Shown here piece after piece: positions 15,101 to 55,802 of a stretch of 55,802 nt of DNA (positions are counted from its first letter, which is position 1; each line of letters opens with the position of its first letter). Position numbers and translations under genes: made by a program. Source of the stretch: a virus. Taxonomy: Duplodnaviria; Caudoviricetes. The notes beneath the pieces are model-generated. The model ran no database searches. It worked only from the letters and a program-made list of their open reading frames with translations, and was not told where the DNA came from. The DNA is taken from positions 1-55,802 of IMG/VR virus record IMGVR_UViG_3300043451_000181; one strand, 5' to 3'.

Positions 15101-16483
15101 CGACACCACCTTGGCGGCTTGCTCGAGTGCTGCTTGCTTGTCCTCTGCGGACTTGCCTTCTTGCGATGCAATGGCTTGAAGACCTTGCACAGCCAAACCA
15201 GGGTTGTAGGTCGCGCTCTTGGGATCGACTAACGCAGACACGTCGCCGCTTGCGATGATTGCCTTGAGCGTGTCCTGATCGCTGCTCTCCTGTACACGTG
15301 CAACGGCGAGATTGCGAATCGACTCAGGGACTGTGGTGTTCAGGGCTTGCACCCCACCACCCAACAAGCCACCCATGAAGGCGCCTTGGCCGGCAGCATT
15401 ACCCACACCCTCAGCCAATGACTGGTTGGGGTTGATCTGTCGGGTAGCGACGTTGTTGAGGAACTGGCCAGAGCCTTCCTCCAAACCTTCTTGGGTACCT
15501 TCGGCAGCAAACACCTTGGGCACCATGCCGATGCTGGCCTTACCCTTGCCAACGAGAGCCTTCTCGAGGGCAGCACCCCCGGGGACCATCTTGGTGCTCA
15601 GCAACGAAGCGCCGGCTGCGGCCAACGTGGCTTTGCTGGCCAGGTCGGATGCGATTTCCTGTTTGGCTGCGTCGGCACCCACCTCTTGCGCGCGGGCGAG
15701 GTACTCAGGGTTCTGAAGCCAGAGGTCATCTGGCAGGGCCATGAGGCGTTGCATCGTGTCAGAGCCGACATCGATGCCCTGCAACCCAGCACTGAAGCCA
15801 ACAGCACCGGCTGTAGCGCTCTTCTCGAGAGCGGCTTCACCCAACTTGGTAGCGGCCAGCTTCGGCGCTGCCTTGGCGGCAACCTTGGCACCGGCTTCCA
15901 CGGTACGGCCGACCTTGCCGGTCACGCCCAACTGTGCGGCTTGCTGAGCCAAGAACTCAGGGATGCTCGTGGGATCCTTCATGGCTTCCCAGAAAGACGA
16001 TCCGAACTCGGTAGCCACCTGAGCCGCTGTGCCGGCAAGCCCATCACCCACGGCATCCTTGACGGCTTGGCCACGTTCGGCCGTGACAGCACTTTTTTCT
16101 TGGGTCTTGTACTGGGACAAGGCCGATTTCATCTTCTCTTGATCGTCTTGCCACTCGCTGAGTTTTTGCGTGGCAGGACCATAGAAATTGCCAGTCATGG
16201 CCTTGTCGACAACCATGGTGGGCAGCTTCAGAAGCGTTTCTGCACCTTGCACACCCGCCAGACCCACATCAGCAAAGTCTTCCAGCACCGAAGAACCCGT
16301 GCGGCTCTTCCAATAGAGATCGTCGTTGCGGGTATTGGTGCGAATTTCTTCTTTCAGCTGCGCAATCTTCTCATCGCTGGCTTTTTGCACCGCATCGTAC
16401 TTGGCATTCAGACCGTATTCCTTTTGGCGGTCCATTTCTTGAGTGATGCGGTCGTTGAAGTAGTCGCGGTAACTGTCTGCCAT
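6167..16483 (-). CDS. Virion-encapsidated RNA polymerase (N4 gp50-like vRNAP)
   Basis: 3438 aa with no Cys seen on reading, a known vRNAP hallmark. T7-like motifs: A (GVDGKTNGP), B (RKLAKTPLTAFIFG), C (LNVHDE). Located at the end of the late operon. Confidence 0.96.
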   Translation of the reverse strand: MADSYRDYFNDRITQEMDRQKEYGLNAKYDAVQKASDEKIAQLKEEIRTNTRNDDLYWKSRTGSSVLEDFADVGLAGVQGAETLLKLPTMVVDKAMTGNFYGPATQKLSEWQDDQEKMKSALSQYKTQEKSAVTAERGQAVKDAVGDGLAGTAAQVATEFGSSFWEAMKDPTSIPEFLAQQAAQLGVTGKVGRTVEAGAKVAAKAAPKLAATKLGEAALEKSATAGAVGFSAGLQGIDVGSDTMQRLMALPDDLWLQNPEYLARAQEVGADAAKQEIASDLASKATLAAAGASLLSTKMVPGGAALEKALVGKGKASIGMVPKVFAAEGTQEGLEEGSGQFLNNVATRQINPNQSLAEGVGNAAGQGAFMGGLLGGGVQALNTTVPESIRNLAVARVQESSDQDTLKAIIASGDVSALVDPKSATYNPGLAVQGLQAIASQEGKSAEDKQAALEQAAKVVSDAQTHVETLKNSLSRITKEGLVADLAMANDALAATDPTDTNQVNVIKTWIDGVQGKIDRFDEKAAAETLATRQQEITALEDQIQASKDTVSRFRKDLQSVDVDVEAEAKNITAADPVASQAAADKIINLSMAAPERLSDETAQRLAQSESLTADQRAYFRVFSKARAHANSLLTMGETSQEIYLGAAADPTKGKPRMLGIKDYREEVGNALATGDRKEAARFLILLKAFATGHAKKAKLVTDAYAEVKAGGADRRLVRLADGNWKVEEGKFASADARQENGGLDITKASAKLPREIQTEAAALSSAYDELTAAYKVKFGGSNVKNVSPAPGVQESSTEQATAPAEASAEAGAASDEQGSAKPDVQSSKSADTAEAAQADGVTEEASGSSAKTVETVSTESTKSTTAETQSTEEGTTVEDVPEAALEDASSTQGLSVFQDKSADEVLPAGTKLGAVYRTLNKAVAFLTQTKKRIEKDADIAKDRPLVSVGNLLSLWNAGTVVPTDFFQESLTDEEIGSLTNFQKFANKWAPLIREQLIKGGLANLKGVKPRADFLFEDPLQDFFNADGSVDENLVTAIAYGAYSWMAETVNGTALKDSEAILKMNGLRENMDLSVTTAGMKALSDLATTQDRAAANIGKHIVDALGLKANAKAEANYMAKLQTAFGLQAIVLLASQDLIDTVNYTGAEMNEFIDGLNVDNEFAQFEYVRVVRSNLKLTGANKEIKDSSVGSRGVLTRMFSSEASPAYASWVPRRFSQAYAKKTGQNITEKQRKILDAAQQVPHRIIPAMWNALNVLGDTVILQAAGWKEYDESKLHVENRLNMQAKNDGLEVQLEGMKNLVQDAEKNSPNKLEQAFYATYEVWRNFRVGVATQDMNLQGSKIHRFMFYRPEWVTKLNLNDRKAMDRFELAVAQAFGVKVDQQNNVATLQLFNDRMAENDGAIKKLAMAVAAAIESNDANALTGGQKQEVAEFAAGREGMQSLQALVAYGKVLNAVAQQESGADVNDVTVHMLVGVDGKTNGPILTQLALGAADTAKNLFTRLNRGGMYKSDDGVKNYNHWYERATSLDLYEDLAFQILNGIAVTKDFAAISVFTKKLIDENEKVTTDGRKLAKTPLTAFIFGSSIDGSVRSMQEAFVQQVIDRIEAVATGQDKKTSRADLIFGLNQLLGTNLSENTPIDELMEKRFTKADRQKLADKFYEQIGSRVEDTMKAYFETYLNRRNDINRTIQGSFEIYNAIYQDLKAKEIQRLIEAGEIDTVERDGKKVPIHNMTMAQEQALREKVKAIMPMANTAYTVDNNELDAGLMMAKNSPMTSDEASNRVKIQLGKRIPKKNGYPVSTFVGQALTQSERNPGVAGLPYFMHSLDSFIMHMSLIGTETLNVHDEAANGVGNVEKTAQAINQSTWEGMLKFSPATESYNMLVRVLQNAAQMAQAGELSPEALAGIKQALRAQLPYALRNEIADDKLASVVLDLAFRAQFEANRVRLETLAQMTSIDQYTWEGGEYMVTKQDRQNAQEALQKHLQVSAVDPTLIAATEALNKALAETSVKADPVVIEQDKTVGKSSIGELGKPAIASDRDLVEFFRVNPNATAKQVIDLLSAAGRLSPVNRKLLQLVSRVVSADLPIQYVTSRTTEEQVLEKAKSPSRGWYVVKGNAESIYVLSPEFKNSGLTAETLLHELIHAAVAKTIANPTAEGKKLVGELESLMAKAKEFAAANGLTQFDAALNDVQEFVAWGMSNLDFQKEVLTKITFESKTRGSALVTGMQKFISTLVGLLYKKPDENMDSGLSVLVSNVSGLFNEASQQTNETTSINLSQQSQQAGAEFTAQQVFKSLDKGNVSPSFQSHMSNLLSGMVQSVYGPFGTLKEAMKSSMASTPMDAWLKAIETGVAPFASKLVNSNFAASAQEVFVMEQVEATVASALSINDITTKPAYRELYKLFTEAKETLTVQDFVNAGFTAADHAFVFNIEGGNDGRSDYLSRFAALGLANEKFKGLLNFKTEAGRVNVGNEKSLFDRLNAWFEQILAYFNHKATNTYAGQKADSKLEALVDRLMDIEAKHRFKANAGETAFQKYGAVVEDMTKDLVDASKQKVIDFANSPIVRNSSSGIVKWGAAIGKVAASGRAAAVMTALRSLRDHATDERDGVWAGLMREMKGPAELVQALLLMTKHSENLRQNAIAQTASVLLKEFKNGGKSLGKEDKVALTSVLLRSGAHNLMGQYSLAQIAQMVSSNTALDQEIAAVEASLTTGLKQMHINMAKGLGYFKATDLNTVPFLMRNAYVIARMLDTQYAGQITEAQAAAEESKIASLVSLYAIKYSTVKDRQAVSSIMEQENLRTDGNGVDLMLKLHKDMEQESLDRLFNGNRVQMTHGYTPEIYDAYVTIQVANEQEGARLVAQGYEKGDLVTSDKNVPDAAGVYGMKQHIYIRRDGGLTRRVSGVMSLTGMKAKGTMIHNGFMNTNTYQGTWNASLQNSVMIAKQGELAAMASNTNFDPTANKQVNVAPVYNDNGHVVNWAHMMGGKTKDRILKRENRFDKVMGTLAGSIIDKHKGRELNEQAITALLTQYTVEKSVTPWSYVEIGPLSSDPENRELWDLLPEQTRMDIRKIWGRDSIMVRKDSVDVIFGYRKLSAGDFLNKERKDLEGVELMARNLFNSLALYRGKSQEEADDWAKRMGAAVVKGERGWQEIYKEVKDIIVVKNLITLLGNIHSNVSLLWLLGVDDGWKRQWTALRGIMAYEEHSKRLMEIQMKLDSGYAGNRSVLEQEVVRLQNEIARNPVTKLVEAGLMPTIVEDVDLQEDPYSYKSELSEKLEKWTNKLPESVRKASKVVYMTHDTPLYKVLSRATQYSDFVARYAMYEHLTTGKEPMSHDKAILKTLNAFVHYDVPMQRNLQYLDDMGFTPFMKYFYRVQRVLFETMRERPARALSMILLNRFVDLGPIVLDSSLVHHAGNMPFRGGALQLPGVLDELLTVQAGLAVVK

Positions 16484-16503
16484 AAGATCTTTCTGCTACG
16501 CAT

Positions 16504-16537
16504 AAAAAAAGAGGGGCACCGTTTCCAGTGCCCCCTC
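16504..16537 (-). terminator. Intrinsic terminator just upstream of the vRNAP gene
   Basis: GAGGGGGCAC...GTGCCCCTC hairpin followed by T7 on the minus strand. Confidence 0.7.
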
Positions 16538-16549
16538 ATTATCCGCTAA

Positions 16550-18055
16550 TCACGGCGCTAGGTTACTCATATTTCCTAGCGCTTCTCGCAGGAAAACCCG
16601 ACGTTGAACCTTCTGTGCAGCTTCTGCCTCGGCAATGCGCTTTTTGACGACGTCTGTGCGCATGGCTTCTTGCAAAATCTCGCGCGCATTGTTGGCTCGA
16701 GTGTTGTCTTTGAACCAACCGCCTTTGGCTGTTGAAATCGCATGACGCATGTCGTTGACCGAAGGGGTCACGAACACACCAGACCCTGGTTTGGTCTCAA
16801 TACCACGGTTTGCCATCTCGTAAACCAAAGCCTGCATGTCTGCCACGTCTTCTTCGGTGCCCAAACCAGTGGTTTTATCGATGAGACTCGGTACGTTCTT
16901 GCGCAGATCTTCGTAGGCCTGAACTGCAGTGGGATTGCCAGGAGCATTCCAGTTTGTTTCCTTGGTCTCGTTGAGCATGACCTTTTCTTGGGCATTGCCA
17001 AGTGCCTTGTTGAAGGCGTCATTGCCCACCAAAACGCTGTTTGCGTTGCTGTCGAAACTTGAACGGATACCGTCTTTGGCCTTTTTCAGCAGGCGAGGAG
17101 TGAATTGACCTGATGCTGCCAACGAATCCACGAAGTTGTTGGCCACGGCCGTGTCGCCCTTCATAAAATCACGGGCTTTGGGTACCGTGACTTGACGATT
17201 TGCACCGGCTGCTTTGTCGAAAGCGGTCAATTGCTCTTCGGTGTAGGAACCAAAGTTCGGTTGACCCAAGGAATCCACTGGCAAACCAGCAGCCTTGGCA
17301 ATCACACCCATGTTTCGGCCGATCACGTCCTTGTTGGCAATGTGCTCTTGCACTGCTGCCGCTGTGGCGTTCTCGATCTTGCGAAGTTCTTGGTTGTCCT
17401 TGAAAGCTTCCTGTGCTTCGGTGAGTTTCAGCGTGCCCATGCTGTTTTGCGTGGCTTGGCCAGCATTGCGCAGCTTCATCCCCTGGAGCTCGATAGGCAT
17501 CTTGTCCTTTTCAAACGTCCAACGGGTCAAGTCACGTTCGCCAGAGACGATCGCCTTGGTCAGATCAGCCGGCAAACGGAGGTCTGGGTTGTCAGCCATG
17601 AGCTTCAACGCAGCATCTTTGTTGCCCAAGGCTGCTTCGCTTAGGATCGACTGGACGATCGGACGTTGCTTTTCGTCCGTCATGAAGTTGTTGTACTCAA
17701 TGCCTTGCTTCTCACGCGTTTGCAGGGTACCCAGGCGGGTGTCCATTGCACTACGGGCAGCGGCTTGGTCGATCTGAGCACCGAATCCAGACAACATCTG
17801 AGTCAGCTCACCTGAGTCCTGCATGCGCTTGAACTCATCTGGGCCCTTGGCCGCGTAGATGGTGTTCATGAACTGGTTCAGGTTGTTTTCTTTTTGCTGT
17901 TGCCAGTTGGCTTTGTCCACCGTCTCCTGTTGCTTCAGGATGTTGTTGAACGAGTTGAAACCATCATTGATGGTCATGCCGGCAATAGCAAGTGGGCGGC
18001 TGGCTTCGGCCAGCGAAGGACCATTGACGGTCCTCCAAGTGATGGGACCGTTCAT
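16550..18055 (-). CDS. Internal virion/ejection protein (N4 gp51-like)
   Basis: 501 aa, starts MNGPITWRTV, Cys-free, immediately upstream of vRNAP. Confidence 0.7.
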   Translation of the reverse strand: MNGPITWRTVNGPSLAEASRPLAIAGMTINDGFNSFNNILKQQETVDKANWQQQKENNLNQFMNTIYAAKGPDEFKRMQDSGELTQMLSGFGAQIDQAAARSAMDTRLGTLQTREKQGIEYNNFMTDEKQRPIVQSILSEAALGNKDAALKLMADNPDLRLPADLTKAIVSGERDLTRWTFEKDKMPIELQGMKLRNAGQATQNSMGTLKLTEAQEAFKDNQELRKIENATAAAVQEHIANKDVIGRNMGVIAKAAGLPVDSLGQPNFGSYTEEQLTAFDKAAGANRQVTVPKARDFMKGDTAVANNFVDSLAASGQFTPRLLKKAKDGIRSSFDSNANSVLVGNDAFNKALGNAQEKVMLNETKETNWNAPGNPTAVQAYEDLRKNVPSLIDKTTGLGTEEDVADMQALVYEMANRGIETKPGSGVFVTPSVNDMRHAISTAKGGWFKDNTRANNAREILQEAMRTDVVKKRIAEAEAAQKVQRRVFLREALGNMSNLAP

Positions 18056-48416: not shown

Positions 48417-48689
48417 ATGTCCAACTACCCACACATCACTGACATCACGTTGTTCTACCAAAGTGCCGATGGAAGACATCGAGTAGCCACTTACAAGAGT
48501 CCACATGGCAACGATGAGTGGGATGCGAACGACTGGCTACGCGTTGTCTGTGCAACGCCTTTTGTGCGGGCCACTTGGCTCCGTCTAGAGGTCACCAGAG
48601 ACCGCCCACAAATCCGAAAAGTGTTTACAAGCCCTTTGTATAAAACACTTCAACTCATCAATCCACCAGAAAGAGAACCATGCGATTAA
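48417..48689 (+). CDS. Hypothetical protein
   Basis: 90 aa; C-terminus LQLINPP resembles paralog 5 of the tandem family. Confidence 0.5.
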   Translation: MSNYPHITDITLFYQSADGRHRVATYKSPHGNDEWDANDWLRVVCATPFVRATWLRLEVTRDRPQIRKVFTSPLYKTLQLINPPEREPCD

Positions 48690-49219
48690 CCAACTTCCTA
48701 CGCGACGCCTTCGTGCGCGCAGTCATGCACGATGTGCCTTCCATCAACTATGAAGAGCAAGCCCACAAGCTTGCTCGTGACCACATCCGTGCGATGTTCA
48801 AAAAGGAATTTCCAGACACGGACTACGACAAGGCATGCGAGTCTGAGTGGTTCAACTCTGGTTCAATCAACTTGCCTTATGGCATCTCCGGCATTCACGT
48901 CAAGTGCATGACCGCCTGGGGCATGTTGAAAAACGAAGAGAAGATCTGGGCCAAGCTCGAAGCACTAGGCGAGAAGAAAAAAGAGCAAGAGAAAACGCTC
49001 AATGCACTCGAGTCTCGCTTGAGAGGGGTGGCTTATGCCTGCACCACACGCAAGCAACTCGAAGAAGCCCTGCCTGAATTCAGTGCGTACCTGCCTGAAG
49101 AGGAAGCCAAAGCAGCCAAGACATTACCTGCAGTGGCCAACGTGCTGTCTGAGTTCGTGAAGGCCGGTTGGCCAAAGCAAAACGCCGGCAAGATTGCCGC
49201 GGCAAAAGCAGCGCCATGA
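48680..49219 (+). CDS. Nmad5-like (nucleotide modification associated domain 5) protein
   Basis: MRLTNxLRDAFVRAVM start and TTRKQLEEALPEFxxYLP...LPAV..V C-terminal motif. Confidence 0.65.
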   Translation: MRLTNFLRDAFVRAVMHDVPSINYEEQAHKLARDHIRAMFKKEFPDTDYDKACESEWFNSGSINLPYGISGIHVKCMTAWGMLKNEEKIWAKLEALGEKKKEQEKTLNALESRLRGVAYACTTRKQLEEALPEFSAYLPEEEAKAAKTLPAVANVLSEFVKAGWPKQNAGKIAAAKAAP

Positions 49220-49866
49220 CCTCAGTAGTTGATCGTGTTGACCATCTGGTCACGCAATACGTCTGGGCATTAGAAAATGATTCGAAAGTCGTACCCGGTC
49301 TTCAAGAAAAAATTCGAGACGGGCACTTTCGAGATTTCTCTGCTGCCATTAAAACAATCATCCTGCCTATTCGTCGACTCATTGGCGATGACGATTTGCT
49401 CGTGTGGGAGCTTGCCTACATCTACATGGAAACTTGGTTTCGTCTAGGTGGGTACGGCAAAGCTTTGACAACCAGTTCGGGAAACCGAGTCTGGAAAGAA
49501 TGTGTAGAAAGCCTCAACATCGTGGGCTTGCACTACACCGATCGCGGTGTCCGCACTCTTCCTAAATCAACCACTAACCCCTGTGCTGAGATCGCTATCA
49601 GCCAACCACAACCTTGTGTACTGGCCGAGCCAGAGAAAGAAATTCCCGTGTCTAAAAAGATCATCATTGCCAATGTGACTTTCATCAACAACGTCGACGT
49701 CACCACCATGAACGACGCACAGTTGATCGATGCCATCAAAACCATTGAAGCAGAAATCGCTGACCTCAAGGCCGTCAAGACTAAGAGCGCAAAGATCGCT
49801 GCCAAGATTGCTGAAGCTCAAGAGACCTTAACCAAGGTCGTTGAGATTCTCGACGGTCGTCCATAA
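49216..49866 (+). CDS. Hypothetical protein with C-terminal coiled coil
   Basis: ATGA-coupled start at 49216; possible internal GTG start at 49648. Confidence 0.55.
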   Translation: MTSVVDRVDHLVTQYVWALENDSKVVPGLQEKIRDGHFRDFSAAIKTIILPIRRLIGDDDLLVWELAYIYMETWFRLGGYGKALTTSSGNRVWKECVESLNIVGLHYTDRGVRTLPKSTTNPCAEIAISQPQPCVLAEPEKEIPVSKKIIIANVTFINNVDVTTMNDAQLIDAIKTIEAEIADLKAVKTKSAKIAAKIAEAQETLTKVVEILDGRP

Positions 49867-49890
49867 AAAAAGCCCTCCGAAGAGGGCTTT
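49865..49890. terminator. Bidirectional terminator
   Basis: AAAAAAAGCCCTC-CGAA-GAGGGCTTT between convergent genes. Confidence 0.75.
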
Positions 49891-49908
49891 CTCAAATGAG
49901 CTCGTGGA

Positions 49909-50325
49909 TTACCACTTGCTCATTTTCATGAGGCCATGCTCCATGGCTTCCTCAGCAGCAGACTCGCCGCTGTCCAAGAAGCGCAGCTTGTAGCAAGTGC
50001 TTGCGCACAGTGCAGTCAAGCCGTCATGGATGTTCTCAAGAGCAGTCTCACCCTTGCAGCAAGCTGCACGGTTCTGCTTGAGCCATTGACGAAGCGCTTC
50101 GATCCAATCACAGGCTTTACCCGTGGGCAATGAGAGCCCTGGGTATTCCGTAATCAAACCAAACATGCCCTGATAAGTCTCGGCGAAGTCATCGGCAATG
50201 CCGACGATCTCGTCATAGAACTCGTTCAGAGCTTTGTGTTCCGCATAGGAACGGGTTTGCAGGTGTGCCACGTGCGCCGCAGTGCGGGCGTGGAAACATC
50301 GCATGATCATTTCACCAGTTGACAT
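49909..50325 (-). CDS. Ferritin/Dps-like four-helix protein (DUF5856-like)
   Basis: AHVAHLQTRSYAEHKALNEFYD...ADDFAETYQG...YKLRFL; AAGGA RBS. Confidence 0.7.
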   Translation of the reverse strand: MSTGEMIMRCFHARTAAHVAHLQTRSYAEHKALNEFYDEIVGIADDFAETYQGMFGLITEYPGLSLPTGKACDWIEALRQWLKQNRAACCKGETALENIHDGLTALCASTCYKLRFLDSGESAAEEAMEHGLMKMSKW

Positions 50326-50367
50326 AGGGGATCCTTTCGAAAAGACCCCTGTATTTTAGGACCAATC

Positions 50368-50754
50368 ATGGACAAATCCCACGTAGGCATGGGTCATTAC
50401 ATTTGCCCCGTCTGTGGCAAAAACCACGGCGAAGAGGTGCTCATCAACCGCTTCTTGCGGCCGACATTGACCCGAAACGAATTCCTCGGCTACGACATGT
50501 GCGAAGAGCATAAAAAGCTCTGCCATGACGGCTACACGGCCTTAATCGAGGTCGCCAACCAGCCTAAAAGCTTCACCGACGCTGTGCGCACTGGCAACAT
50601 CGCCCACGTGAAAAACACGGTCTGGGAGCACATCTTCAACATGCCGCTGCCTGACAAGGGTATGGCTTTCGTTGAAGTCGGTGTATTTACCATGCTTCAA
50701 CAGAAAGTCGAAGACGCATCCATCATGCACCAAGCAGAGCTTTATGGCCACTGA
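50368..50754 (+). CDS. Zn-binding hypothetical protein
   Basis: KSHVGM, CPVCG and CEEH motifs; AGGA RBS. Confidence 0.65.
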   Translation: MDKSHVGMGHYICPVCGKNHGEEVLINRFLRPTLTRNEFLGYDMCEEHKKLCHDGYTALIEVANQPKSFTDAVRTGNIAHVKNTVWEHIFNMPLPDKGMAFVEVGVFTMLQQKVEDASIMHQAELYGH

Positions 50755-50829
50755 CGCCTTCCTTACGGAAGATGAGGTTCGCATACTCAAATTCATGGAA
50801 CTCCTTGATTCAGAACCAACGGAATAAAT

Positions 50830-51021
50830 ATGGCAATACACCCCGATTTTGTTCAACAAGCCGACGCTACCCTTCGTGAACTAATGCTCGTTCGAGACCT
50901 CGCCGCAGCCAATGGCAAGCTTGAGGCATGGTGTGCTCTCTACACGAACGGGCTGATGCTCAAGTTCAGGGCCATGAGACATGCTCCAAGCCACCCGAAA
51001 CCTCCACCAGCTGCAGCGTGA
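50830..51021 (+). CDS. Small hypothetical protein
   Basis: GGA RBS; 63 aa. Confidence 0.45.
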   Translation: MAIHPDFVQQADATLRELMLVRDLAAANGKLEAWCALYTNGLMLKFRAMRHAPSHPKPPPAAA

Positions 51022-51223
51022 AGGCGTGGCCTACGAGGTGCCTTCCGAGGGCACCCACGTCGTCGTGCGCACTGTCAACGAGACCATCCACTTCTGGCCG
51101 TCAACCTGTCGGTGGTGGATCGTTGGTTCGTCAACCAAGCGGGGCGGGATCGTCCGCCTCATCAAGTACGTCAAGGGCAAGCAACGGCCTGCAATTCCTG
51201 CAATTGGCCAATTCTGGCCCTAG
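50981..51223 (+). CDS. Small hypothetical protein (HFWPST motif)
   Basis: IHFWPSTCRWW...RGGIVRLIKY pattern seen in small phage proteins. Confidence 0.5.
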   Translation: MLQATRNLHQLQREGVAYEVPSEGTHVVVRTVNETIHFWPSTCRWWIVGSSTKRGGIVRLIKYVKGKQRPAIPAIGQFWP

Positions 51224-51325
51224 AAAAATCAATGACTTAGCTCGCTTCTAACTCCGTGCCTATTGCATGAAGTTTGCGCGCTACGGCCTTGATTCCAAAG
51301 GTGTAATTCCCGGCAAGCAAGCTGT

Positions 51326-51370
51326 CTACGAACCAAGGGGTCGTGGGTTCGAATCCTGCCAGCCGCACCA
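51326..51370 (+). other. 3' half of tRNA-Arg(ACG) (att core; not a complete tRNA)
   Basis: CTACGAA anticodon loop, CCAAG, GGGTC, T arm GTGGG-TTCGAAT-CCTGC, acceptor CAGCCGC-ACCA; no D arm or 5' acceptor strand upstream. Confidence 0.85.
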
Positions 51371-51387
51371 ATAAACGTAGCAAAATC

Positions 51388-51424
51388 AAGGGCTTGGGTC
51401 TTCGGACTCAGGCCCTTTTTCTTT
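51388..51424 (+). terminator. Terminator after the tRNA half
   Basis: AAGGGCTTGGGTC-TTCG-GACTCAGGCCCTT followed by a T run. Confidence 0.8.
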
Positions 51425-51467
51425 GGTCTCTGCAATAGATGACCATCTCTGCAATTGAAAGTTCCCC

Positions 51468-51692
51468 ATGATCCAAGAACACCTACGCACCCTTGCCTTT
51501 AACTGCGGCGGCAAGGCCCACACCGAAGGCCCCATGCGCGCTGTGACCGGCGTGACGCTCACATGGGCCCAGCTGACCAAGTTCGCTGAAGCCATCAAAT
51601 CTGGCCGACACACTTGCTCATCCCTCTGCCACCCAGAGGAGCCTTGCATGTTGACCGCTACGGGCACCTGCCCCAATGGAGACGTGCGATGA
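51468..51692 (+). CDS. Small Cys-containing hypothetical protein
   Basis: 74 aa; first of an ATGA-coupled chain. Confidence 0.5.
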   Translation: MIQEHLRTLAFNCGGKAHTEGPMRAVTGVTLTWAQLTKFAEAIKSGRHTCSSLCHPEEPCMLTATGTCPNGDVR

Positions 51693-51817
51693 GCAACTAC
51701 GACCTTAAGTTCTGGATCTTCGTCTTCGTCCTGTTCTTCCTCTTCCAAGGTGAACCTGACGTCTGGGACTACCTGCGTGCCCGCACCGGCCTGACCGTGG
51801 AGGGCTGCAGCAAATGA
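51689..51817 (+). CDS. Small membrane protein
   Basis: ATGA-coupled; FWIFVFVLFFLFQGEPDVWD. Confidence 0.55.
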   Translation: MSNYDLKFWIFVFVLFFLFQGEPDVWDYLRARTGLTVEGCSK

Positions 51818-51996
51818 TCTCCACCTGGATCCTCGTGGTCTTCCTCACCAGCTCTACCAACAGTGCTGCCGGAGGACCCTTCATCATCGAAAACATCATC
51901 AACCAAGACGAGTGCTTGCGTGTGCAGGAAGTTGTTGAGCGTCGTCTCAGAGCTCCCCGCGCGCTGTGCATCGAAGTCAGAAAGACCAAGCCATGA
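51814..51996 (+). CDS. Small protein with N-terminal hydrophobic segment and two Cys
   Basis: WILVVFL...ECLR...ALCIEV. Confidence 0.55.
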   Translation: MISTWILVVFLTSSTNSAAGGPFIIENIINQDECLRVQEVVERRLRAPRALCIEVRKTKP

Positions 51997-52211
51997 CCAA
52001 AATCAAACACCTCCCCAGCCAGACCTACGAACCCTACGTGCCCAGTAAGGCTCAATTCGTTCGCCCAGGCGGCATGGATGCCTACGAGCTCCCTTCCCGC
52101 GTCGGTGACCAGCGTCACCCCTACAAGCCGCCATCCAATGGCTGCGTAGGTGTGCTGAAGGACCGTACCTCTCACACTGGCCAGTACCAGGAGAACAGGA
52201 CTGGTCGATGA
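51993..52211 (+). CDS. Small hypothetical protein
   Basis: ATGA-coupled; RPGGMDAYELPSR motif. Confidence 0.55.
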   Translation: MTKIKHLPSQTYEPYVPSKAQFVRPGGMDAYELPSRVGDQRHPYKPPSNGCVGVLKDRTSHTGQYQENRTGR

Positions 52212-54916: not shown

Positions 54917-55199
54917 TCTTGCCTTTCATCAATAAATCATCAATCTCCCTGCGCATTTTCCGCAGCTCTTTGGCTTCGGATTTTATTTCGGCCCGCATCC
55001 ACTTTGTCTCGATGTAAGCCAAGAAAGAAACCACTACGAATACGACGATGGCAACGTATATGAGGACTCTTCCCAAAAGCGCGAGCGTGCCGAGTGTTGG
55101 ATTCGCAAATCCCACATTATTCCCAGCACTATTACCGACAGTATTGCCGTAGCTATTACCTGCACCCAGATTTCGATTCGGTGGTTTCTGCGTAGCCAT
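54864..55199 (-). CDS. Single-TM membrane protein (start uncertain)
   Basis: Hydrophobic helix followed by a coiled coil; overlaps the upstream gene extensively, so the true start may be nearer 55115. Confidence 0.45.
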   Translation of the reverse strand: MATQKPPNRNLGAGNSYGNTVGNSAGNNVGFANPTLGTLALLGRVLIYVAIVVFVVVSFLAYIETKWMRAEIKSEAKELRKMRREIDDLLMKGKNEKAAVPSSAGTTGDGL

Positions 55200-55801
55200 T
55201 GTCGAGCTTCCTCATCTCTCTGCTGCTTCTTTTTAAGCATCCGGTCGAACTCTTGTTCTTCCAGAATTTGTTCGTACATGCTCAAGAAACGGCTGTAGAT
55301 GTCACGCAGCTCGCGTGGTGCATACACCATTGCTTCCCTGATCTGCACCGACATGTTCTCGAGCTGTAGCTCGATCTCAACGCGGTCGATCGCACTGTCT
55401 TCGATTGTCGTCGTGGTTTTGGAGATTTCCTCCAGCTCCAGACAATAGGCCCGTAGATTCCGACGAATCTCAAAAAAGGTCTTCAGCTGCTCGCAGACCG
55501 CATGAATGGCATGGGTCTGATATTCCTCGTAGCTGAGCTCTTCAACGGGCTCTGATTTTTTCTTCTTCTTGACTACCGGGGCAGGGGCTTCAGGCTTGGG
55601 AGTGTCAGCAACAGGTTGCTGTATCTCGACCTTCTTCTGAGAACCCTGCCCAAATAAACCAAGAAGCCACGACCACAGGCCAGTGACTTCTTTGTAGATG
55701 GCTTTGGCATCGCCAATGCCTTGTTCGACTGTCTTCTTGAGCTTGCCTATCTCAGCCTTGCCCTCGGAGAGCATCTCGCAGCCTTTCCTGACAGCTGCAA
55801 C
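55034..55801 (-). CDS. Coiled-coil protein with C-terminal TM (5'-truncated by window)
   Basis: Frame remains open to the window end; C-terminal hydrophobic helix. Confidence 0.6.
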   Translation of the reverse strand, partial: VAAVRKGCEMLSEGKAEIGKLKKTVEQGIGDAKAIYKEVTGLWSWLLGLFGQGSQKKVEIQQPVADTPKPEAPAPVVKKKKKSEPVEELSYEEYQTHAIHAVCEQLKTFFEIRRNLRAYCLELEEISKTTTTIEDSAIDRVEIELQLENMSVQIREAMVYAPRELRDIYSRFLSMYEQILEEQEFDRMLKKKQQRDEEARQWLRRNHRIEIWVQVIATAILSVIVLGIMWDLRIQHSARSRFWEESSYTLPSSYS

Positions 55802-55802
55802 A

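Follow-up and report, generated by a model that had tools for sequence, protein, structure and literature searches.

Organization of the locus

The window – the whole stretch of DNA that was analysed, a linear, metagenome-assembled IMG/VR record of 55,802 bp that CheckV estimates to be 77% complete – carries near one end the 3' half of a tRNA-Arg(ACG) gene, flanked by short repeats and motifs and preceded by small open reading frames (ORFs). These features are listed below; where useful they are set against two related loci, L129 (from genome G001) and the metagenome contig L179.

50744..50827, plus strand: remnant ORF of 27 codons (MATDAFLTEDEVRILKFMELLDSEPTE), compared with the DUF4224 gene (16220-16444) and integrase (16444-17535) of L129 and with L179
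50830..51021, plus strand: small ORF, about 96% identical to L179 from 191 onward; follows the integrase stop in relatives
50981..51223, plus strand: small ORF whose 3' end overlaps both P-arm repeats; homologous to L129 17929-18204
51189..51204, plus strand: P arm, two direct CTGCAAT repeats (51189 and 51198), invariant in five genomes, GTACTAT in G002
51227..51239, plus strand: first IHF-consensus motif, AATCAATGACTTA, a motif match within a conserved block
51260..51268, minus strand: inverted arm-type copy, ATGCAAT (6/7 match), with counterparts in G002 and in the attR of G296
51326..51370, plus strand: core, 45 bp, exact 3' half of tRNA-Arg(ACG) from anticodon loop to CCA
51326-51332, plus strand: anticodon loop CTACGAA within the core (core 3' end, ACCA), the likely crossover region
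51384..51396, plus strand: second IHF-consensus motif, AATCAAGGGCTTG, overlapping the beginning of the terminator stem
51388..51427, plus strand: intrinsic terminator by folding pattern, a 13-pair stem (51388-51417) and T tract
51430..51455, plus strand: P' arm, two direct CTGCAAT repeats (51430 and 51449)

No Pfam or PHROG family was found for the ORF at 50830..51021, and among the small ORFs around the site these two databases revealed no repressor, excisionase or other named family. Gene annotation of the window places phage genes on both sides of the site, as the first-pass annotation (made from the sequence alone) had stated.

The same annotation had called the phage N4-like (Schitoviridae), and gene content agrees: the hallmark giant virion RNA polymerase (vRNAP; 3438 aa, phrog_2206, E=0), both subunits of the N4-type RNAP II (phrog_2166 and phrog_2051) and N4-type structural genes are all present. 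Portal, major capsid protein and large terminase are encoded, together with replication genes for a Dda-like helicase, DNA polymerase, primase, SSB and Sak4-like annealing protein. The DNA polymerase is at most 55% identical to any in a collection of phage isolates (top match, Pseudomonas phage phCDa), and blastn of 50900-51800 against that collection gave no match. Related viral loci recovered by the DNA polymerase number 29. Within this clade the att module lies between the DNA-polymerase region and the lysis cassette, and the hosts are freshwater Burkholderiales.

Both edges of the window fall inside genes (1-832 in a primase gene; 55034-55802 in an ORF of the minus-strand block) and the late, minus-strand genes meet the early/RNAP genes near 31-33 kb (region 30.3-33 kb): the record is thus a permuted fragment. 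Synteny with G001 places the absent part just past the lysis cassette that adjoins the att site. Separately, an ORF at 48680-49219, 3' of the DNA polymerase, bears an Nmad5 domain (PF18757, 1.4e-16), which hints at a function in DNA modification.

The core is a host tRNA allele

Letter for letter, positions 51326-51370 reproduce the 3' half of a tRNA-Arg(ACG) gene beginning at the anticodon loop. An anticodon-loop class of tRNA attachment sites was reportedly described by Williams in 2002. The first-pass annotation had recognized the half, had named Burkholderiales as the source of the tRNA and had proposed a search with these 45 bp for the host; its assignment proved correct. Exact matches occur in at least 120 stretches of bacterial genomes: among the named records listed, all are Burkholderiales or unclassified Pseudomonadota metagenome-assembled genomes (MAGs), and among the matches listed, nearly all have the tRNA-Arg 5' half directly before the 45-mer. 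The exact 100-mer comprising tRNA half and terminator matched no bacterial genome, so that in none of the genomes searched is the host's own downstream sequence identical to the P' arm. ARAGORN found no whole tRNA gene in the window, and the sequence upstream of the core shows no pairing with the acceptor 3' strand and hence forms no complete cloverleaf.

The core of the window differs from that of five aligned relatives at exactly three positions, all in the acceptor stem (CCAGCCGCACCA vs CCGGGCGCGCCA); around these positions the surroundings in L179 are otherwise identical to the window. Both variants are natural host alleles: that of the window is found at the loci counted above (at least 120), and that of the relatives matches a tRNA-Arg allele exactly in 38 of the 401 Burkholderiales genomes sampled. 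Since the 3' half supplied by the phage must pair with the acceptor 5' strand of the host to give a functional tRNA, the two alleles look like adaptation to different hosts, judging from the sequences.

Arm repeats, IHF-like motifs and terminator

Around the core the first-pass annotation had noted paired CTGCAAT repeats on both arms, an inverted copy at 51260, two motifs ending in N3-CTT and a terminator behind the tRNA half, and each of these is present. Across the whole window CTGCAAT shows no enrichment (15 copies, compared to 11.0 +/- 3.2 expected). Four of the 15, however, fall within 267 bp, all on the plus strand, a clustering reached in 0.056% of 100,000 random placements of 15 sites (p about 0.0006). 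Matches of viral contigs to a 19-mer from the P arm were in five of eight cases chance matches inside coding sequence.

The pattern AAAATCAANNNCTT, which is wider than the IHF consensus in the form used in print (WATCAANNNNTTR), has two matches in the window compared to 0.04 expected, and both are inside the site. Both also fit the narrower consensus; this is a match of sequence, and the second motif belongs at the same time to a host-like terminator. Terminators of similar build lie downstream of host tRNA-Arg genes, and after integration the phage-borne one would serve as terminator of the restored tRNA gene.

Alignment of six phage copies of attP (five with CTGCAAT arms, plus G002) shows that the repeats at all five arm-type places switch in concert from one integrase lineage to another. 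Five of the six genomes have CTGCAAT twice in the P arm, at the inverted place and twice in the P' arm; in G002 (integrase 73% identical to that of L129), GTACTAT occupies four of the five places and GTACTAC the inverted one. The counterpart of the inverted copy is thus an inverted GTACTA(C) in G002, and it is an inverted CTGTACTATTG in the attR of an element integrated in the Burkholderiales genome G296 (see below). The block AAAATCAATGACTTA is invariant in all six attP copies, and a block CCCTAG(G/A)AAAATCAAT(C/G)ACTTA is common to sites of the window type and the G296 attR. Although the flanks of the window and L179 differ by about 5%, the functional elements of the site are 100% identical: this fits a recent deletion, but also continued use of the site.

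A deletion at the syntenic place of the integrase

No match to a tyrosine or serine recombinase (PF00589, PF00239) was found anywhere in the 55.8-kb window. The absence of an integrase beside the site, which the first-pass annotation had pointed out, is accompanied by the remnant ORF at the syntenic place. By blastn the window matches L129 on either side of a 1.3-kb segment (L129 16266-17558), in place of which it has 61 bp. About 15 codons in the 5' part of the remnant are those of the DUF4224 gene (MATDAFLTEDEVRIL), the next 10 or so have no clear source, and the 3' end bears a resemblance to the last integrase codons and stop that we read as weak (16 of 24 bases). From these comparisons the remnant ORF is the scar of a deletion of DUF4224 and integrase genes. 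About 1.2 kb was removed, taking most of the DUF4224 gene and all of the integrase except about its last five codons.

L179, a contig found via the P' arm, shares 94.8% identity with the window across 1399 bp (94.3% across 2778 bp). It opens with the C-terminal 61 residues of an integrase, encoded by the first 185 bases; this stretch contains HDLRAK and the RIY tyrosine and is 89% identical to its L129 counterpart; the stop codon lies four bases before the ORF that begins at 50830 in the window.

The junction was checked against Logan contigs from four runs of four studies (freshwater, aquatic, wastewater) over 49800-52200, cover of this interval being partial in runs X3, X4 and X7. Positions 50790-50850 are bridged with no differences by contigs of three studies (X1 record 1, X3 record 11 and X4 record 19), and a contig of X7 extends to 50828 with two differences. 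No integrase-bearing variant was seen at the junction among the loose ends listed for the four runs. The deletion of the integrase is real and present in nature.

Integrases in related genomes

Eight genomes carry this type of site. The state of the integrase at the syntenic place is as follows:

Window (G000): deleted
G808: deleted
G411 (L131): deleted
L179: 3' end present; remainder beyond the contig start
G001: present
G807: present
G002: present
G003: present

The gene is therefore gone in three of eight. PF00589 is found in all five of the nearest near-complete relatives, in four of them above the Pfam cut-off. In G001 (99% complete; DNA polymerase 78% identical to that of the window) the order at L129 is a DUF4224 gene (PF13986, 7e-14), a 363-aa integrase (PF00589, 2e-8), three small ORFs and an att site with CTGCAAT pairs, IHF-like motifs and tRNA-Arg half as in the window. 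This integrase is the sole PF00589 match in G001. Compared to it, the integrase of G807 is 95% identical and those of G002 and G003 are 73% identical. A DUF4224 gene plus tyrosine integrase stands just upstream of the site in G001, G807, G002 and L179 (in the last, the integrase 3' end). Rfam searches of five integrase loci of relatives gave nothing at E<=0.1.

The two other integrase-less genomes have different junctions. In G808 the first 16 or so codons of the DUF4224 gene are fused to about the last 22 of the integrase, and the att site is whole. In G411 about nine codons of the integrase run straight into the tRNA half at GAACCAAGG, the deletion having taken the integrase, the P arm and the anticodon-loop portion of the half. 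The integrase has thus been lost three times independently within the clade, and attP was left whole in two of the three cases.

Two further observations concern individual relatives. The DUF4224 ORF of G411 (L131 14365-14589) ends in another frame than that of L129, and this gene, adjoining the deleted integrase, may be decaying too. In G003, a 73.6-kb N4-like relative (L171 3430-3734), the tRNA is dealt with differently: the att core comprises only about 14 bases of a host-type anticodon stem-loop (TGGCTACGAACCAA) flanked by arm repeats of the GTACTAT type and an IHF-like motif. 3' of the P' arm the phage has an entire tRNA-Arg(ACG) gene of its own, whose anticodon stem differs and which may replace the host gene that integration would break.

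Elements integrated at tRNA-Arg(ACG)

Homologues of the L129 integrase (E<=1e-30) are present in seven of the 401 sampled Burkholderiales genomes. The best, in G296, is 59% identical, and a complete tRNA-Arg(ACG) stands 232 bp away from it; the tRNA 3' half recurs 51.5 kb from the whole gene, giving an attL/attR layout. Reading along the half-site, the order of repeat (CTGTACTATTC), CCCTAGGAAAATCAATCACTTA, inverted repeat (CAATAGTACAG) and core is that of the window, and two GT(G/A)CTATAGAAA repeats follow the whole tRNA and its terminator. The first-pass annotation had suggested looking for related prophages at tRNA-Arg. In about 800 sampled genomes no integrated N4-like copy was found. The major capsid protein of the window had two weak matches (23-28% identity) in the 401 Burkholderiales genomes and none in 401 genomes of one family. 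With no integrated copy of the clade found, its lysogeny rests on gene content and the anatomy of the site.

One contig of run X1 (4267 bp, of phage-like depth) begins with 18 letters of the tRNA 5' half, to which the core and P' arm are joined. Either an attL or, just as well, a graph artefact at the 45-bp repeat could account for it; as an attL it would not fit a phage that is unable to integrate.

Unrelated elements share the 45-bp core, and for some of them integrated forms with attL and attR are seen. One viral contig (L006/L008) begins and ends with a copy, the tRNA being whole in one and halved in the other, and in Variovorax soli (L083/L047) whole tRNA and half are 44 kb apart. A separate family of integrative elements on the same core (L002, L004, L005, L007, L014, L081) has arm repeats of the GGGGACTTTTGGGGGACTGG type and a AAATCAAnAACTTAG motif about 25 bp upstream of the core; repeats of this type also follow the tRNA in Ideonella azotifigens and a Mycoavidus MAG. 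Integrases of unrelated elements at this tRNA (L002-L008, L039, L047, L055) and of distant N4-like genomes (G004, G005, G413, G415) were considered as kin and set aside: none has BLASTP similarity to that of L129 at E<=1e-3, and being of other types they are uninformative as to the site in the window. The record of G004 (L167, L168; IMG/VR class provirus) is cut at gene ends, with the integrase at one end and lysis genes at the other, and no tRNA or att site was found within it; this layout fits integration beside the integrase, but shows no junction.

A probable orphaned attP and the alternatives

We consider it highly probable that 51189-51455 is a complete lambda-type attP, orphaned by recent loss of the integrase in a formerly temperate N4-like lineage. 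The first-pass annotation was right in the details of its attP reading (core, arm repeats, inverted copy and two motifs). It had left open whether the integrase was distant, borrowed in trans or recently lost: the integrase of the relatives and the fused remnant favor the last, while the first two found no support.

If the siblings integrate as the anatomy of the site suggests, their integrase would bind the core and the CTGCAAT repeats of the arms, bending of the arms would come from the two IHF-consensus sites, and strand exchange would take place at or close to the anticodon loop in the tRNA-Arg(ACG) gene of the host. The 45-bp half and terminator of the phage would then replace the displaced host half, and the tRNA gene would stay whole. 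Given the deletion of the DUF4224 and integrase genes, the site in the window is an orphan and the phage unable to integrate alone; it is probably an obligately lytic descendant of a temperate ancestor.

The phage might instead still be temperate, with an integrase encoded in the unseen 23% of its genome, or supplied in trans by a co-infecting or resident sibling with identical arm repeats. The record is after all incomplete at 77%, all its arm and IHF-like elements survive unchanged relative to L179, which bears an integrase, G808 retains a whole site although it too has no integrase, and run X1 contains the attL-like contig. That contig, however, is equally explained by a graph artefact, and no loose end bearing an integrase was among those listed at the junction in the four runs. 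Moreover, the 99%-complete G001 has only the syntenic PF00589 match, and genes for tail fibres, thymidylate synthase and ribonucleotide reductase occupy the stretch of G001 that corresponds to the segment absent from the window. We therefore regard continued temperance as unlikely.

It is very unlikely that the phage retains the tRNA half for a separate RNA role (as a decoy or substitute for a cleaved host tRNA, or as the tRNA-like 3' end of a transcript), the repeats being incidental. The half is intact, ends in CCA and has a terminator behind it, and in Rfam it weakly resembles the tRNA-like 3' end of tmRNA (14.9 bits, compared to a gathering score of 47); but there is no 5' half and no tRNA call, the same half adjoins integrases in siblings, the arm repeats covary with integrase lineage, and G411 lost the anticodon-loop portion of the half together with its integrase. 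That the missing integrase reflects misassembly or a chimeric contig is conceivable for a metagenome-assembled fragment, yet extremely improbable given that contigs of three different studies bridge the identical junction and that two other genomes bear different deletions of the same gene.

Comparison with known systems

N4-like phages are usually treated as strictly lytic, and for this reason have been put forward for therapy; an attP is still unusual in this carrier family. Temperate phages are familiar as a source of virulent derivatives through loss of the integrase or repressor, and there, as probably here, loss of integration genes leaves a lytic phage with relics of a lysogeny module; in the present case, however, three independent losses have occurred in a natural N4-like clade and attP is whole after two of them.

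The orphaned attP resembles tRNA-targeting tyrosine-integrase modules of temperate phages and genomic islands, the principle of which is given in the abstract on Islander (PMC4383910), in the identity block from anticodon loop to tRNA 3' end by which the gene is restored and in arm-type repeats on both arms; between arms and core it has matches to the IHF consensus. In those modules the integrase usually lies beside the site, as it does in the relatives of the window. Here, by contrast, the carrier is an N4-like podovirus from which the integrase has been deleted and the site left untouched. The G296 element (51.5 kb) has the same target gene, the same P-arm order and a nearly identical IHF-like block, but it is not recognizably N4-like (the window's capsid protein did not find it), its integrase gene, on the P' side, is oriented toward the tRNA, and its arm repeat is like GTACTAT rather than CTGCAAT.

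Lysogenic N4-like lineages have been known since 2023. As far as its main text goes, a survey of that year (PMC10654107), in which N4-like genomes come largely from IMG/VR, reports hallmark genes of lysogeny (integrase, transposase or DGR) in 54 N4-like uncultured genomes and proviruses, a tendency of lysogeny genes toward particular subfamilies, and integrated N4-like regions in Moraxella and Enterococcus. Its integrase-encoding N4-like genomes are in this respect like the relatives of the window. In that main text, however, the word attP is absent, tRNA is used only for host prediction, and attachment sites, a tRNA-Arg target or integrase-deleted derivatives are not described. At the level of listings, the literature on N4-like/Schitoviridae lysogeny likewise yielded no description of an N4-like attachment site or of an integrase-deleted derivative. 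We believe that no N4-like attachment site has been described base by base before this one, with its target gene, arms and predicted bending sites.

Implications for N4-like phages

A more speculative and rather doubtful extension is that the lysogeny module is unstable in this clade, that phages retaining a whole attP without an integrase are not simply dead remnants and might borrow the integrase of co-infecting siblings whose arm repeats are identical (a parasitic lysogeny), and that the core swap marks a host shift. Were this so, the swap of core alleles would record recombination with the tRNA gene of a new host. The two alleles are in any case a possible marker for host assignment.

In nature, nearly the same phage exists side by side in a temperate and an integrase-less form, and presence or absence of an integrase in a single genome is thus a poor guide to the lifestyle of a lineage. 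Pairs of genomes with and without the gene (L179 or G807 vs the window or G808) amount to a natural experiment on what lysogeny costs and gains an N4-like phage.
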